Part shown: positions 189 to 8,533 of the stretch, in pieces
How the letters are laid out: each line of letters opens with the position of its first letter
Numbering within the stretch: position 1 is the stretch's first letter
UHGV virus genome: UHGV-2009704
Source of the DNA: a virus
DNA length: 8,909 nt
Strand: one strand, 5' to 3'
Notes under the pieces: model-generated
Told to the model about the DNA's origin: nothing
What the model saw: only the letters and a program-made list of their open reading frames with translations
Databases searched by the model: none
Translations under genes and position numbers: made by a program

Positions 189-221
189 GGTGCGCATAAT
201 GTACGACTCGTTATGTTGAAA
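189..221. other. attL: degenerate dif-like site (XerC arm GGTGCGCATAA, 11-nt central region TGTACGACTCG, XerD-like arm TTATGTTGAAA)
   Basis: The first 15 nt are identical to the perfect dif at 8506-8520. The central region is 11 nt instead of 6, and the XerD-like arm matches TTATGTTAAAT at 9 of 11 positions. Confidence 0.7.
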
Positions 222-1266: not shown

Positions 1267-1563
1267 TTACTTTCCTTGTGTTGGTTTAGTAGTGGATTGT
1301 TGAGCTTTTTCTAAAAGCCTTTTTGCTTTAGATGTGTCCAAACCATCTTGGGCAAAGCCTTGTTGCTTATCATTCTGTTTTTGTTCACTTTTTTTTGGCG
1401 TATTCATCAGTATATACTTTGACTCGTTTTGTTTATCTCGATGACTTACTTTTTGTTTAAGTTTTGCACAAACTAGAACGTGCAGTGTTGGTAATACTGC
1501 ACGTTTGTACCATTCGTGGTACTTAATCCTTTTGTTTGGCAGACATGAGATCTTCTGCTGCAT
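1267..1563 (-). CDS. Hypothetical Lys/Gln-rich small protein with conserved C-terminal tail GLDTSKAKRLLEKAQ; start uncertain
   Basis: The ORF ends with TAA at 1267-1269, 1 nt before the next gene's ATG. The C-terminal 20 codons are supported by paralogy with the 990-1265 tail. Alternative starts are TTG 1581, ATG 1563 (overlaps the upstream ORF by about 40 nt) or ATG 1407. Confidence 0.4.
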   Translation of the reverse strand: MQQKISCLPNKRIKYHEWYKRAVLPTLHVLVCAKLKQKVSHRDKQNESKYILMNTPKKSEQKQNDKQQGFAQDGLDTSKAKRLLEKAQQSTTKPTQGK

Positions 1564-1705
1564 CTTTAGAGTAGTTATCAATCAGATAACCTAAAATCTC
1601 TGTCCATGTAATTGTTTTTCCTAGTTTTACACTGGCATTTATAGCCAGTCGTTCTAGTTTCATTTTTCTTTCTTCCGTCACGTTATAAGTCGTGCGCTTT
1701 GCCAT
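1523..1705 (-). CDS. Putative small DNA-binding regulator (60 aa, possible ribbon-helix-helix fold), first gene of the divergent accessory operon
   Basis: Its N-terminus, MAKRTTYNVTEERKMKLERLAIN, has a beta-strand then helix pattern typical of RHH (Arc/CopG-like) proteins. It sits directly next to the divergent control region upstream of gII. The RBS is weak. Confidence 0.45.
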   Translation of the reverse strand: MAKRTTYNVTEERKMKLERLAINASVKLGKTITWTEILGYLIDNYSKDAAEDLMSAKQKD

Positions 1706-1874
1706 TTTTTACGCTCGTTCAATGCAATATTTGAAGTGAGTATACATGCTCATGAACTCATATCATCCAAGCCTCTTGAACTCACTAGCTCACTGATGTA
1801 ATGTTAAAACACTAATGAACTACTGAACTCATGTGTTAGTAAGTCGTCATTTTTGCAATTTTGAGGATTTATTC
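1706..1874. promoter_or_regulatory. Divergent control region between the accessory operon and gII, with repeated TGAACT(C/A) motifs (candidate operators or iterons)
   Basis: TGAACTCA occurs at 1753-1760, 1777-1784 and 1824-1831, and TGAACTAC at 1816-1823. CTCACT is duplicated at 1781-1795. Possible gII promoter: -35 TTGAAC 1776-1781, -10 TAATGT 1799-1804. Possible minus-strand -10: TATACT at 1744-1739. Confidence 0.5.
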
Positions 1875-2927
1875 GTGATCGATTGGCTTACCGGGATTTT
1901 CCCTTGCACACACAAACCGCTTCCGGCGGGGAGTGTTGTCAGCGTTGATGCTGACGGTGCAATTGAGTGGGAAACCGTTAAGCGACTGACTGTTCGCGGC
2001 TCGCATGAAGCAACGATGAAAGTACGATCGATAGGATCTAATGGCGAAGGTAAAGCGACACATTTGTACATTGATGGTAATCCGTCCAAGTTTTTGCAGG
2101 GGCATTCTGTTGTTGGGTCGGATGATATACAAGGGCTCATGTTGACGGTCTATGCCAGGATTTTATCCTTATTGAATATTCCTCATGATTTAGCGTCTTA
2201 TAAAGCTGTTATAGCAGGTCAGTATAAAATTTCACGTGTTGACATTAATTACATGTATTCATTATCTACGCTAGAAAATGTCAGATCATGGCTTTATGCC
2301 GCCGAATTTAAAGCTAAAACACGCCATGGTCGCGCATGTGGGAAAGGCGGTACAGTTTATTTAGGTAAAAACTCCCGTCGATGGAGTCTGAAATTTTATT
2401 CAAAATATGATGAACACGTTTCGGGTAAAAAAGGGCACCAGATAGCCGAAGATTTTGTACGAGCCGGGTTACTGGACTGGACGAAAGATAAATTACGTAT
2501 TGAATTAACATTAAGAACAACTGAGCTTATTGATTTAAATTTAACGCTTGGCGCTAACTGGAATATGAAAACACCACGTCAATTATTCTCTGAATATGTA
2601 GGGAGAATAGAAATGAATCAGAATGCTATTTTAAGTGATGAAAAAATAACGAAACTGCCAAGAAAAATACAGTCAACTTATTTACTTTGGAAACAAGGGG
2701 CTAACATGAAAGAAATGTTACCTCATAACACTTTTTATCGCCATAGAAGAGAATTGCTTTCGTTCGGTATCGATATTAATTTCTATTGTGATTCACCAGA
2801 CTCTAATAACGTTGTTCCGCTAATAAGAACGCTGGAAGCCAAGCCAGTGGAAATCCCCTTATGGATTTATGAGAAAGGTTTTATTTTCGATTACAACCGT
2901 ATTTCGCACGCCAGTAGCTGGCATTAA
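1875..2927 (+). CDS. gII: Replication initiation protein pII (rolling-circle nickase)
   Basis: Recalled similarity to M13 pII: N-terminal MIDWL vs MIDML, KFLQGHSVVG vs KVLQGHNVFG, and C-terminal SNNVVPLIR vs CNNVVPLVR. GTG at 1875 has the RBS GAGGA 7 nt upstream. The track ORF starts at GTG 1833, which has no RBS. Confidence 0.85.
   Translation: MIDWLTGIFPCTHKPLPAGSVVSVDADGAIEWETVKRLTVRGSHEATMKVRSIGSNGEGKATHLYIDGNPSKFLQGHSVVGSDDIQGLMLTVYARILSLLNIPHDLASYKAVIAGQYKISRVDINYMYSLSTLENVRSWLYAAEFKAKTRHGRACGKGGTVYLGKNSRRWSLKFYSKYDEHVSGKKGHQIAEDFVRAGLLDWTKDKLRIELTLRTTELIDLNLTLGANWNMKTPRQLFSEYVGRIEMNQNAILSDEKITKLPRKIQSTYLLWKQGANMKEMLPHNTFYRHRRELLSFGIDINFYCDSPDSNNVVPLIRTLEAKPVEIPLWIYEKGFIFDYNRISHASSWH
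2613..2927 (+). CDS. gX: pX, in-frame internal initiation product of gII (104 aa)
   Basis: Internal ATG at 2613 is preceded by GGGAGAA. Its position and N-terminal MN match the M13 gX start within gII. Called by analogy with Ff. Confidence 0.5.
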   Translation: MNQNAILSDEKITKLPRKIQSTYLLWKQGANMKEMLPHNTFYRHRRELLSFGIDINFYCDSPDSNNVVPLIRTLEAKPVEIPLWIYEKGFIFDYNRISHASSWH

Positions 2928-3748: not shown

Positions 3749-5029
3749 ATGAAAAGGAAAATATTAATTCTTTCCGCTGTCCTCATTTCTCCTTTTTCAC
3801 ATGCTGAGTCATGGGAAAGCATTACTAAATCCACTTATCAAAGCTCTGCCTACGCTGAAAGTAAGCAAATAACCAATCAGGATGGCTCTAAGTCAACGGT
3901 TTACTATATTGATGCTGCTATGCAGGCCTCCGCTTGTCAGGGTGCTAAATCCAGTGCTCAGAGTGTATTTACTCAGGTTAAACCAACTTATGAGGGTATC
4001 TGGCCTGATTCTGAATTCCGTCTTGTTTTTACTGGTGATTGTACTTACAGCGATTCACCAGGGCAGAAGGATAAATATTGGTCTTTAACGGCTTATATTG
4101 TTGGTGATATTCAGCGTTCTGTTCCTGATGAAAAACCTACTGACCCGACACCAGAAGAAATTTGTGAAGCGAAGCCGCCAGAAGAAGGTGTATTTAATAA
4201 TGTTGATTCATATGATGGTGGTCGTTATATCTACTATAACGGCTGTGAATATGAGGCTACTGGTGTCATTGTTTGTCAGGGTGATGGTACTGTTTGCGCT
4301 GCAACATGGAAGCCTACAGGTACTGTAGCTGACCCCTCTGATAAACCCTCAACCCCCCAAAATGGTGGTGGTGAGTCTGGCGGTGGTGAGTCTGGCGGTG
4401 GTGAGTCCGGTGGCGGTAGTTCTGGCGGTGGTGAGTCCGGTGGCGGTAGTTCTGGCGGTGGTGAGTCCGGTGGCGGTAGTTCTGGCGGTGGCTTTAGTGG
4501 TTCCAGTCTTTCTAAAGGTGATATTCAGTCTGCTATCGAAGGTGCTTCACCCAAAATAGCCAGCGATATTCATGATAAATTAACGGAGAAAGACACTTCA
4601 TCAGATGATAAAAAAAATGCCGATGAACAAACTAGGAATAATATAAATCGTCTTGACGATTCCATTAACAATCTTACGCGGGGGGCTGGCCGTTTTGCTG
4701 ACCCTTCAGGTGGTGATTCTCGTTATGGAAAGGGCGACTCTGAATTAGATGGCGCTTCTACTTTGGCTGATTCTGAATTGGGAATTGAAAAGGATTCTCA
4801 CGGTGCTTTATGGGAAGCATTTTTAAATAAAGGTGCTATGCTGCCTAATTTACCCAATGGTAACGGCTGCTCTGATTTTATTATTTTTCCCGGAGAGGTT
4901 TATCAGATTGATATTGGTTGCGATAAATTACTGACTATTAAAGATGTTCTTTCATGGGTTTTTTATTGCCTTACGTTCTGGTATGTCTTTACTTCTTTAA
5001 CTTCATTGCTTCGCAAAGGGGGTGAGTGA
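3749..5029 (+). CDS. gIII: Minor coat / host-attachment protein pIII (426 aa)
   Basis: Signal peptide [19 protein letters not shown], a Gly-rich linker of ([10 protein letters not shown]) repeats, and a C-terminal membrane anchor IGCDKLL...[17 protein letters not shown] resembling IKe/Ff pIII. Its stop overlaps the gVI start. Confidence 0.9.
4367..4486 (+). repeat. Tandem coding repeats in the gIII glycine-rich linker
   Basis: Two 15-bp units GGTGGTGAGTCTGGC (4367-4396) are followed by three perfect 30-bp units GGTGGTGAGTCCGGTGGCGGTAGTTCTGGC (4397-4426, 4427-4456, 4457-4486). Confidence 0.9.
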
Positions 5030-6472: not shown

Positions 6473-7738
6473 ATGCGCTCTGTTATTGTTGCTTTTTTAT
6501 TTGCCTGTTCATTCTGCGTTTCTGCTGAAACTGTTAATTTAAACAATTCATCTGTTCGCTCATTTGTTCAGTGGTATTCTTCAAAAACTGGCAAGCCTGT
6601 TATTGTTAATCCTGATATTAAAGGAAACGTAACCGTATTTAATGCTGATGTTAATCCAACAAATATTGATGATTTCTTTAAGTCTGTTCTGAATGCTAAC
6701 GGTTTTGTCATGCTTTCTGGCAATCCTGCGGTAGTCTCTTTGCCGTCTAAATTACCTTCACAGATGGTTTCGGATTCCGATGATTCTGATAACCAGTCTT
6801 ATGATACTTTTCCTTCTGAGCCATCTTACCAGCCAGTACCTGTGGCGCTTACGGTCAGAAATTTTAAGCTGACAAAAGTTAGATCGTCCGATGTTCAGCA
6901 ACTGATTAAAATTTATCTTGATTCTAATGGTGGTGGTAATGTCGTGGATTATCCAGGCAATAACTCGCTGATTGTTTCTGCGCCTGACGAGCTGCTGCCG
7001 GTTCTGTCCGATTTTATCAATTCTGTGGATGTTGCCCGCGATCAGGTTCTCATTCAGTCGCTGATGTTTGAAACCAGCTTGTCTGATGGCGTTGATTTAT
7101 CGTTTGCGGCAGGTTCTGCATCCGGTCATAAGGTTGCGGGGGGCTTTAATACTTCTGCACTGGGTAGCGCTCTTTCTACGGCGGGCGGTTCTTTTGGTAT
7201 TTTTGATGGTAACGTGTTGGCGCTGTCTCTGCGTGCTGTCCAGAGTAATTCACGCTCTAAGGTGATTTCAACGCCGCGTATTCTTACTCAGTCTGGTCAG
7301 ACTGGTTACATTTCCGTAGGTAAGAATGTGCCGTTTATCACCGGAAAGGTAACGGGCGAATCTGCCGGGGTAAATAATCCGTTTCAGACTATCGAGCGTC
7401 ATGATGTTGGCGTTTCTCTCAAGGTAACGCCTGTTGTCATGGGTAACGGGCAACTAGTTCTGACTATCGACACTCGCGCTGATTCAATCAGCAATGATGA
7501 TCAGGCATCCGATATTATTACTAATCAGCGCCAGATTCAGACGACAGTCCAGATTAAGGATGGTCAGACGTTGTTATTGGGGGGGCTTATCGATTCATCG
7601 TTTAGCAATGCTGAGCGTTCAGTTCCAGTTATAAGTAAAATTCCTCTTATAGGCTGGATTTTCAGTAGCAAGGCAGACAGCAATGAACAGCGTATTATGT
7701 ATATTTTGCTTACAGCACATATCATTCGTCCACTTTGA
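6473..7738 (+). CDS. gIV: Outer-membrane secretin pIV (421 aa)
   Basis: Signal peptide MRSVIVAFLFACSFCVSA and strong recalled similarity to M13 pIV (SFAAGS, GGSFGIF, PRILT, VPFITGKVTGESAGVNNPFQTIER, GQTLLLGGL, SKIPLIG). RBS is AGGAG. Confidence 0.9.
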   Translation: MRSVIVAFLFACSFCVSAETVNLNNSSVRSFVQWYSSKTGKPVIVNPDIKGNVTVFNADVNPTNIDDFFKSVLNANGFVMLSGNPAVVSLPSKLPSQMVSDSDDSDNQSYDTFPSEPSYQPVPVALTVRNFKLTKVRSSDVQQLIKIYLDSNGGGNVVDYPGNNSLIVSAPDELLPVLSDFINSVDVARDQVLIQSLMFETSLSDGVDLSFAAGSASGHKVAGGFNTSALGSALSTAGGSFGIFDGNVLALSLRAVQSNSRSKVISTPRILTQSGQTGYISVGKNVPFITGKVTGESAGVNNPFQTIERHDVGVSLKVTPVVMGNGQLVLTIDTRADSISNDDQASDIITNQRQIQTTVQIKDGQTLLLGGLIDSSFSNAERSVPVISKIPLIGWIFSSKADSNEQRIMYILLTAHIIRPL

Positions 7739-7779
7739 TGGATAGCGGGTAGGTGCGTGAGCCCTGCTCGCTATCCATC
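7737..7779. other. Imperfect hairpin immediately after gIV (candidate packaging signal or ssDNA structural element)
   Basis: GATGGATAGCG (7737-7747) pairs with CGCTATCCATC (7769-7779), with further imperfect pairing inward and a 9-nt loop. No T-tract follows, so it is not a canonical intrinsic terminator. Confidence 0.5.
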
Positions 7780-7807
7780 AAATGGACATTATTGATTGGG
7801 GTAACTA

Positions 7808-8233: not shown

Positions 8234-8467
8234 ATGCAATTTTTCACATCCAGCGATACTGTAATGTTATGTGCGAAGACCTGCGATCGCTGTGGTCGCC
8301 ATGCGAAGACGGTGGTAGATGACATTGAGTTCAATGAGTTTCTGTCTGTTAATCACTTAGCTGGATACGGTTCAATTTTTGGTGACAGTAATCGCTTAAA
8401 ACTGGATTTATGCCAACATTGCCTGAAAGACGTCCTGGGCCAGTGGATTACGGTCTGTGACCAATGA
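8234..8467 (+). CDS. Hypothetical small protein (77 aa) with two CxxC pairs (possible zinc ribbon)
   Basis: Strong RBS GAGGAG 5 nt upstream of the ATG. Cys pairs are CDRC (residues 17-20) and CQHC (60-63). It ends 38 nt before the dif site. Confidence 0.6.
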   Translation: MQFFTSSDTVMLCAKTCDRCGRHAKTVVDDIEFNEFLSVNHLAGYGSIFGDSNRLKLDLCQHCLKDVLGQWITVCDQ

Positions 8468-8505: not shown

Positions 8506-8533
8506 GGTGCGCATAATGTATATTATGTTAAAT
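8506..8533. other. attR: canonical 28-bp dif site (XerC arm GGTGCGCATAA, central TGTATA, XerD arm TTATGTTAAAT)
   Basis: Exact match to the enterobacterial dif core sequence as I recall it. It is a direct repeat of the left dif-like site. Confidence 0.85.

Follow-up and report, generated by a model that had tools for sequence, protein, structure and literature searches.

Phased 8-bp boxes upstream of gII as probable operators of a small RHH-like repressor in a UPphi901-like filamentous prophage

The control region upstream of the replication gene gII in UHGV virus genome UHGV-2009704 (8,909 nucleotides, the whole of which was analysed and is called the window) was found to contain four closely spaced copies of a TGAACT-type 8-mer, and the question raised by this locus was what such repeats are for. 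The initial annotation had offered two answers: that they are operators for a small putative RHH regulator encoded divergently from gII, or that they are iterons associated with the nicking origin of pII. The repeats were found to co-occur with homologues of the 60-aa regulator and not with a pII type, and this result, like every other computational test applied, supports the operator reading. We put the probability at roughly 0.8 that the repeats are operators of an RHH repressor in a UPphi901-like filamentous prophage and form part of a lysogeny or copy-control switch, a reading drawn from sequence comparison and structure prediction.

The window corresponded to an Escherichia coli chromosome segment located between hipA and a LysR-family gene, at dif, and was bounded by a degenerate and a perfect dif copy (Table 1). 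At least 80 % of the element was present in about 44 of the 5426 complete E. coli genomes, many of which contained several copies. Judged by gene content and similarities, the window fits a filamentous prophage of the UPphi901-like (UPphi) type. It was found to share with the UPphi901 group (Shapiro & Putonti 2020) the integration at dif, gII and gV genes about 85 % identical to those of YpfPhi, a remainder resembling I2-2/IKe, two unknown genes after gIV, and reverse ORFs beside dif; no analysis of the regulator, operators or origin is contained in that study. The gV product of the window was of the Putative_G5P type (Pfam), and its pII was found to be 56 % identical to the pII of phage I2-2 and 85 % identical to that of CUS-1/UTI89. 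The start of gII was placed at GTG 1875, the Pfam Phage_CRI alignment beginning there at position 1, and the mechanical 364-aa ORF starting at 1833 was dropped in its favour. Because gII starts at this GTG, the divergent intergenic region that separates it from the minus-strand 60-aa ORF extends over positions 1706-1874. A DNA search with positions 1500-2000 against the phage collection gave no match. In strain FDAARGOS_1256 (L001, 3377-4428), gII was annotated as frameshifted in a prophage otherwise 99.8 % identical, and that prophage copy is therefore probably replication-defective.

Table 1. Positions of known and predicted features in the window
Feature	Position	Strand	Sequence or remark
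Degenerate dif copy	189-216		XerC arm and part of centre kept; prophage boundary
Origin-like hairpin, 33 nt	1476-1508	+	GAACGTGCAGTGTTGGTAATACTGCACGTTTGT (hairpin also written GAACGTGCAGTGTTGGTAATACTGCACGTT)
Inverted repeat after hairpin	to ~1525	+	GTACCAttcgTGGTAC
Gene for 60-aa putative RHH repressor	1523..1705	-	starts MAKRTTYNVTEERK...; predicted DNA-reading strand at residues ~3-10
Predicted -10 of repressor gene promoter (Preg)	1739..1744	-	TATACT; promoter scan
O1 (candidate operator)	1745-1760		CATGCTCA (half box nnnnYTCA) and TGAACTCA, adjacent; fills the 16-bp Preg spacer
Weak -35-like element of Preg	1766-1761	-	ATGATA; not conserved
Unit in O1/O2 register	1769-1776		AAGCCTCT; right half CCTCT (1772-1776) invariant in 9 lineages
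Predicted gII promoter	1776..1804	+	-35 TTGAAC 1776-1781, 17-nt spacer, -10 TAATGT 1799-1804; read from sequence
O2 (candidate operator)	1777-1792		TGAACTCA (O2a, invariant) and CTAGCTCA; overlaps the predicted gII promoter (-35 and most of its spacer)
Weak third O2 unit	1793-1800		CTGATGTA
O3 (candidate operator)	1816-1839		TGAACTAC, TGAACTCA and TGTGTTAG in tandem; ~+6 to +29 of predicted gII transcript
gII ribosome-binding site	1863-1867	+	GAGGA; upstream of GTG 1875
gII, replication initiator pII/X	1875..2927	+	Pfam Phage_CRI 3e-70, G2P_X_C 5e-29
Perfect 28-bp dif	8506-8533		other prophage boundary

The four 8-mers described earlier as lying within 80 bp were confirmed at their exact positions, with TGAACTCA at 1753-1760, 1777-1784 and 1824-1831 and TGAACTAC at 1816-1823, all on the plus strand. 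The motif TGAACTMM was found to occur six times on the two strands of the window against 1.05 occurrences expected, a number reached by none of 200 shuffles. Four of the six copies fell inside 79 bp, for which about 0.009 copies would be expected (from 1.05 per 8909 bp), and the clustering is therefore not due to chance. The earlier description was right in position but incomplete: the copies were found to extend to 12-mers of the form CTnnTGAACTCA, the 8-mer was found to be a pseudo-palindrome, TGA-RY-TCA, and not a directional repeat, and weaker units were found to adjoin the strong ones in 8-bp register (CATGCTCA at 1745, AAGCCTCT at 1769, CTAGCTCA at 1785 and TGTGTTAG at 1832). The consensus unit TGARYTCA of 8 bp was present in at least seven units in three arrays with 8-bp steps (O1, O2 and O3). 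Same-register units also occupied positions 1761-1776 and 1793-1800, giving seven consecutive 8-bp units over 1745-1800, and O3 was found to be out of register with O1 and O2. The CCTCT directly upstream of the -35 and O2a does not belong to a full box; it may serve as an upstream promoter element, or as a half box (YTCW) contacted by a flanking dimer.

Beyond the control region, TGARYTCA was matched perfectly at 8326-8333 (TGAGTTCA, within a 77-aa ORF, codons E-F-N-E-F) and at 859-866 (TGAATTCA, an EcoRI site), and these lone matches are probably due to chance. A 23-nt direct repeat, 78 % identical, was found at 1686-1708 and 1840-1862, the former copy encoding M-A-K-R-T-T-Y of the regulator and the latter lying in the gII leader (minus-strand ATG ACG ACT TAC TAA). 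It may be a duplication vestige or chance; it was rejected as an operator element because the former copy belongs to the start of the regulator's coding region and 78 % identity between two copies may arise by chance. By eye, the O2 region was also considered as a TrpR-like (CTAG) or LexA-like site; both ideas were rejected, as the relatives do not keep those bases.

The boxes were found to lie on two divergent promoters which, together with their start sites, we infer from the sequence. In the predicted -10 of Preg, A1739, T1743 and A1744 were invariant in nine lineages. The predicted gII transcript would start near 1811, and TTGAAC, TGTA (1797-1800) and T1804 of its promoter were invariant or nearly so across lineages. 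The TTGAAC at 1776-1781 had been described as part of one repeat copy, and it does overlap the second copy (1777-1784); O2 as a whole spans -34 to -19 of the predicted gII promoter. A role of O2a in the -35 alone could suffice for its invariance. The gII promoter is weak in the window and escaped the promoter scan, because its -10 matches at only 3/6 positions, and several relatives were found to contain a better gII -10 than the TAATGT of the window, for example TATTAT or TAGTAT.

The 60-aa protein was found to belong to phrog_2503, a family with no assigned function. The AlphaFold2 model (41 aligned sequences, pLDDT 93.5) contained an extended N-terminus at residues 1-10 followed by helices at residues 11-28 and 34-59, and the predicted monomer thus shows the N-terminal beta-strand and two helices of the RHH fold. 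Residues R4-T10 were found to contain an alternating polar/hydrophobic pattern in this monomer prediction, compatible with an antiparallel major-groove ribbon. Membership in a curated RHH family was not found, a Pfam search at E <= 10 with 17 family members giving nothing relevant, and the 60-aa protein had no HTH family match in Pfam. Foldseek against the PDB gave no match, and a PDB sequence search from a shallow profile returned noise alone. With the family profile, the top PDB sequence was ParG, at an E of 0.41 (hmmsearch), and hhalign against ParG (sequence verified as 1P94) gave a probability of 69 % and an E of 4.3e-5 for a single comparison, with alignment from the ribbon to helix B. 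A profile search of 1.84 billion representatives recovered 64 clusters of the family (50 % identity), which differ in their N-terminal strand. Phage I2-2 (L017, X14336) was found to contain an unannotated 60-aa homologue, 43 % identical, on the minus strand at 2720-2918 in its 'intergenic region', divergent from gII; it is split by a frameshift in X14336, and an intact 65-aa version (P0117) was found in a metagenome contig (L027).

Related loci were collected by a profile scan of genome contigs with the family alignment, which gave four loci, and by exact-protein look-ups for the others, and those encoding homologues of the 60-aa protein were turned to the orientation of the window. The same layout was found in 11 lineages (Escherichia, Salmonella, Brenneria, Phytobacter, Scandinavium, Citrobacter/Enterobacteriaceae, Providencia and metagenomes). 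Relative to the invariant -35 box (window 1777), the strong O1 unit (TGAACTCA, TGAGTTCA or TGAGCTCA, depending on lineage) stood at -24, or at -25 in a single clade, with a half box nnnnYTCA before it; a second box was present at +8 and the tandem three at about +37/39, +45/47 and +53/55. The three O3 units stood at 8-bp steps in 11/11 lineages. The 8-bp phasing, the box number and the 24-bp O1-O2 spacing were kept in every relative with a 60-aa homologue, even where pII was almost unalignable. Over 13 related loci, the density of perfect TGARYTCA was 20.5 per kb within the 150 nt that precede the regulator gene and 0.036 per kb in the remainder. The columns of the boxes were conserved at 1.6-2.0 bits, while those of the 11 nt that separate O1 from O2 averaged 0.77 bits; the positions over both predicted promoters and the phasing were conserved and the sequence between was not, which favours the operator reading.

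Boxes at the same position were found to switch between TGAACTCA and TGAGTTCA or TGAGCTCA from lineage to lineage, the centre being AC, GT or GC with the TGA..TCA arms kept. The central O3 unit flipped between TGAACTCA and TGAGTTCA even between regulators that are 92 % identical (L021/L023 against the window), and the O2 pair of L014 was found to form a perfect 16-bp palindrome, TGAACTCATGAGTTCA. Flips of the centre with the arms kept are expected of a symmetric dimer, and not of a directional signal or of an RNA or ssDNA structure.

The sequence of the boxes was also found to shift with the N-terminal strand of the protein, which, with the modelling of the protein as RHH, speaks for the operator reading. 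Ribbons that keep TYN were accompanied by TGARYTCA boxes (KRTTYNVT in the window, KRATYNVT in L014 and RRTTYNID in L025). The ribbon KRTTVSVT (L026) was accompanied by TGAGTAAC/GTTACTCA boxes of the TGAGTAAM type at intergenic positions 37, 61, 69 and 107/115/123, in the layout of the window with 24-bp O1-O2 spacing and a triple tandem O3. The intact I2-2-type locus (L027, SRTTASIT) contained four tandem 8-bp units around GTATACAC directly upstream of the gII ribosome-binding site, and a marine contig (L028, PRTTISLS) contained TAGGTGAA and TTCACCTA joined as a 16-bp palindrome, followed by the presence of two further copies. A cross-count of the four box types over the intergenic regions gave an almost diagonal matrix, which is anecdotal, as it covers four types and ignores kinship. 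Anecdotal as it is, this covariation of ribbon and box is the strongest indirect evidence that the 60-aa protein reads the boxes.

As iterons or binding repeats of a pII rolling-circle origin, the boxes would be well placed directly upstream of gII, since Ff pII binds repeats beside its nick site, and TGAACT is superficially like the Ff repeat TGGAAC; they would then be expected to go with pII, and this was not found. In CUS-1/UTI89, a pII 85 % identical to that of the window was accompanied by a 148-aa HTH regulator (RstR-like, YPO2273 type) and an unrelated intergenic region in which no TGARYTCA was present, the homology with the window ending exactly at the gII start codon and restarting at the hairpin beyond the 3′ end of the regulator gene. 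Six loci (L007, L009, L010, L011, L014 and L016) were found to contain a pII barely alignable with that of the window (E > 1e-4), a regulator 59-86 % identical and the full box layout, and some loci with an unrelated pII contained a different gV family as well and yet the boxes. Because of these dissociations the boxes can be said to travel with the gene for the 60-aa protein and not with pII, although the regulator gene adjoins the boxes and their co-occurrence is hence partly linkage. What did follow the pII type was the element at 1476-1525, located between the regulator gene and the accessory ORFs, 250 bp from the boxes. It was found to align with the M13 (+) origin core (GAGTCCAC-GTTCTTTAATA-GTGGACTC, then GTTCCAaacTGGAAC) in 23 invariant columns that include the TAATA nick loop, followed by GTTCCA..TGGAAC; it was identical or nearly so in all loci with the pII type of the window, CUS-1 and I2-2 included, and absent from the loci with other pII types. 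In ssDNA folding against shuffles, positions 1465-1520 gave a z of -4.3 whereas the box region was no better than shuffles (z +0.85 and +0.57). The features of an Ff-type (+) origin (TAATA-loop nick hairpin, adjacent inverted repeat and co-inheritance with pII) were thus found at 1476-1525 and not in the box region. The pII-specific cis element is most likely this M13-like core, and it would contain the putative nick site of pII; the iteron reading of the boxes, put forward earlier as the alternative, is almost certainly wrong. CUS-1 (UTI89, L002) was found to contain a 27-nt inverted repeat of its own at 2047-2103 (ATGCTCATTTCTGAC.../...GTCAGATCTGAGCAT), with a third partial copy at 2126-2150, and these are presumably operators of its HTH regulator.

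Three further explanations leave pII aside. The boxes may be sites of a host transcription factor, or plain conserved promoter elements, with the 60-aa protein unrelated to them; O2a overlaps the -35 hexamer, all hosts are Enterobacterales with global regulators in common, and the gII promoter of YpfPhi is bound by host RovA (PMC4266046). This is decidedly unlikely, as it leaves the three phased boxes past the start site and the orientation flips unexplained, would not give the change of box with the ribbon of a phage protein (L026, L027 and L028), and is at odds with CUS-1, in which the same species, dif site and pII were found without boxes. No factor of E. coli is known to us whose site consists of TGARYTCA units in tandem, one every 8 bp. 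In Ff, pV represses translation of gII via the leader, and O3 lies in the predicted gII 5′ UTR, where it might be an RNA element such as a pV translational operator, or else an ssDNA structure. O3 nevertheless persisted alongside gV genes of two unrelated families (Putative_G5P and Phage_DNA_bind), the same box was present in O1 and O2 outside the transcript, the folding energy was no better than that of shuffles, and an Rfam search gave no match. The orientation flips moreover make or break hairpins, the units being direct repeats in the window but forming palindromes in L014, so that no O3 structure is conserved, and an RNA or ssDNA role of O3 is extremely improbable. It is also very improbable that the array is mainly a centromere-like or copy-control site of the replicative form, coated in the manner of ParG, and not a transcriptional operator: ParG, a centromere-binding protein, is the best PDB sequence relative, and the seven one-register units over 1745-1800 are as in ParG arrays, yet the arrays lie exactly on two divergent promoters, and the 60-aa protein is without the long N-terminal tail of ParG. 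No gene for a ParA/ParF-type ATPase partner was found in the window or the related loci, the sole Walker-type protein being the Zot/pI assembly protein.

The operator reading finds its nearest parallels among known RHH systems. ParG is known to bind degenerate ACTC boxes that lie 4 bp apart, point either way and form arrays at the promoter, and MetJ to bind tandem 8-bp palindromes (PMC3413123). With ParG and the OF operator/parH centromere of plasmid TP228, the present system was found to share a small RHH-type protein, a ribbon that starts with KR (KRVNVNFD in ParG, KRTTYNVT here) and short degenerate boxes with an 8-bp period at the promoter, which in ParG are cooperatively coated (PMC3413123), and the box here contains ACTC (TGAACTCA). 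It differs in that the sequence similarity is marginal, as the hhalign and hmmsearch values given above indicate, in that no ParF partner and no long tail are present here, in that the palindromic TGA..TCA with the central RY is most conserved and not ACTC alone, and in that it would be an inovirus replication switch and not a plasmid partition system. The met boxes of E. coli likewise consist of an 8-bp palindromic unit (AGACGTCT in MetJ) placed head to tail at 8-bp steps, each bound by one RHH dimer with dimer-dimer cooperativity; MetJ, however, is a host-encoded protein of 105 aa that requires S-adenosylmethionine and has no sequence relationship to the 60-aa protein. The heptad arrays of the Omega repressor (pSM19035) differ in their period of 7 bp, in the box and in serving a plasmid global regulator.

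In the arrangement of genes, the locus was found to resemble RstR/ig-2 of CTXphi and YPO2273 of YpfPhi/CUS-1, in which the replication gene and a small repressor gene are transcribed away from each other, with repeated operators between them, and the whole module is swapped between otherwise similar phages. The divergent repressor gene and the repeated sites in the shared intergenic region correspond to an inovirus immunity module, and the homology break between the window and UTI89/CUS-1, which have gII and the origin hairpin in common but not the regulator and the intergenic region, shows that such modules are exchanged as a unit. The cassette holds the place of RstR/ig-2 in CTXphi and of YPO2273 in YpfPhi/CUS-1. 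RstR and YPO2273 both belong to the helix-turn-helix class and their operators are unrelated to the boxes here, whereas the protein here was predicted to be RHH-like and showed no HTH homology; the role of YPO2273 is itself unproven (PMC4266046).

Short phased pseudo-palindromic boxes placed over a promoter, direct or inverted, are the mark of RHH operators, and the three TGARYTCA arrays conform to it. For the operator reading, we infer the binding, its cooperativity and the direction of regulation as follows. Each dimer of the 60-aa protein would read an 8-bp TGARYTCA box through a two-stranded beta-ribbon (KRTTYNVT) inserted in the major groove, and neighbouring dimers on boxes 8 bp apart would bind cooperatively in the manner of MetJ and ParG, with TGAACTACTGAACTCA as candidate target of a dimer of dimers. 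Occupation of O1, in the spacer of the repressor's own promoter, would give autoregulation, and occupation of O2, over the -35 and spacer of the gII promoter, would exclude RNA polymerase. O3, just past the gII start, may act as a roadblock or as a cooperative partner, its role being a guess. The net effect would be that pII is limited, and therefore rolling-circle replication and virion production as well, probably with immunity against phages that carry the same boxes. The repressor-operator cassette is uncharacterised so far, yet of a conventional RHH type.

Prophages of the UPphi type are often found in urinary and bloodstream E. coli, Salmonella, Klebsiella and Citrobacter. For the control of their production, the present comparison names the likely repressor, resolves its candidate operator to single bases and puts the probable replication origin at a distance of 250 bp. 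Regulator and operator are swapped together, as one cassette, between inoviruses whose replication proteins are unrelated. The four pairs of ribbon and box may serve as a test set for RHH recognition rules and as a route to predicting superinfection-immunity groups from sequence. Phage I2-2, a textbook phage classically regarded as 'non-temperate', is revealed to contain an overlooked regulator gene. On a wider reading, which we regard as unlikely, the 60-aa protein would represent a ParG-related family so far overlooked (64 clusters), whose members build phased nucleoprotein filaments over the control regions of inoviruses. Its function would then go beyond transcriptional repression, the filaments serving the replicative form as a centromere-like or copy-control complex, and a simple ribbon-to-box code (TYN with TGARYTCA, VSV with TGAGTAAC, ASI with GTATACAC and ISL with TAGGTGAA) would set immunity or incompatibility groups, I2-2 included.

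Away from the control region, gIII of the window was found to contain Gly/Ser-rich tandem repeats at 4362-4490, the region in which UPphi phages reportedly vary most (Shapiro & Putonti 2020). A very stable hairpin was present at 7735-7781, immediately 3′ of gIV (ssDNA z -7.4), and at 7747-7767, 20/21 bases were found to match the annotated morphogenetic (packaging) signal of I2-2.
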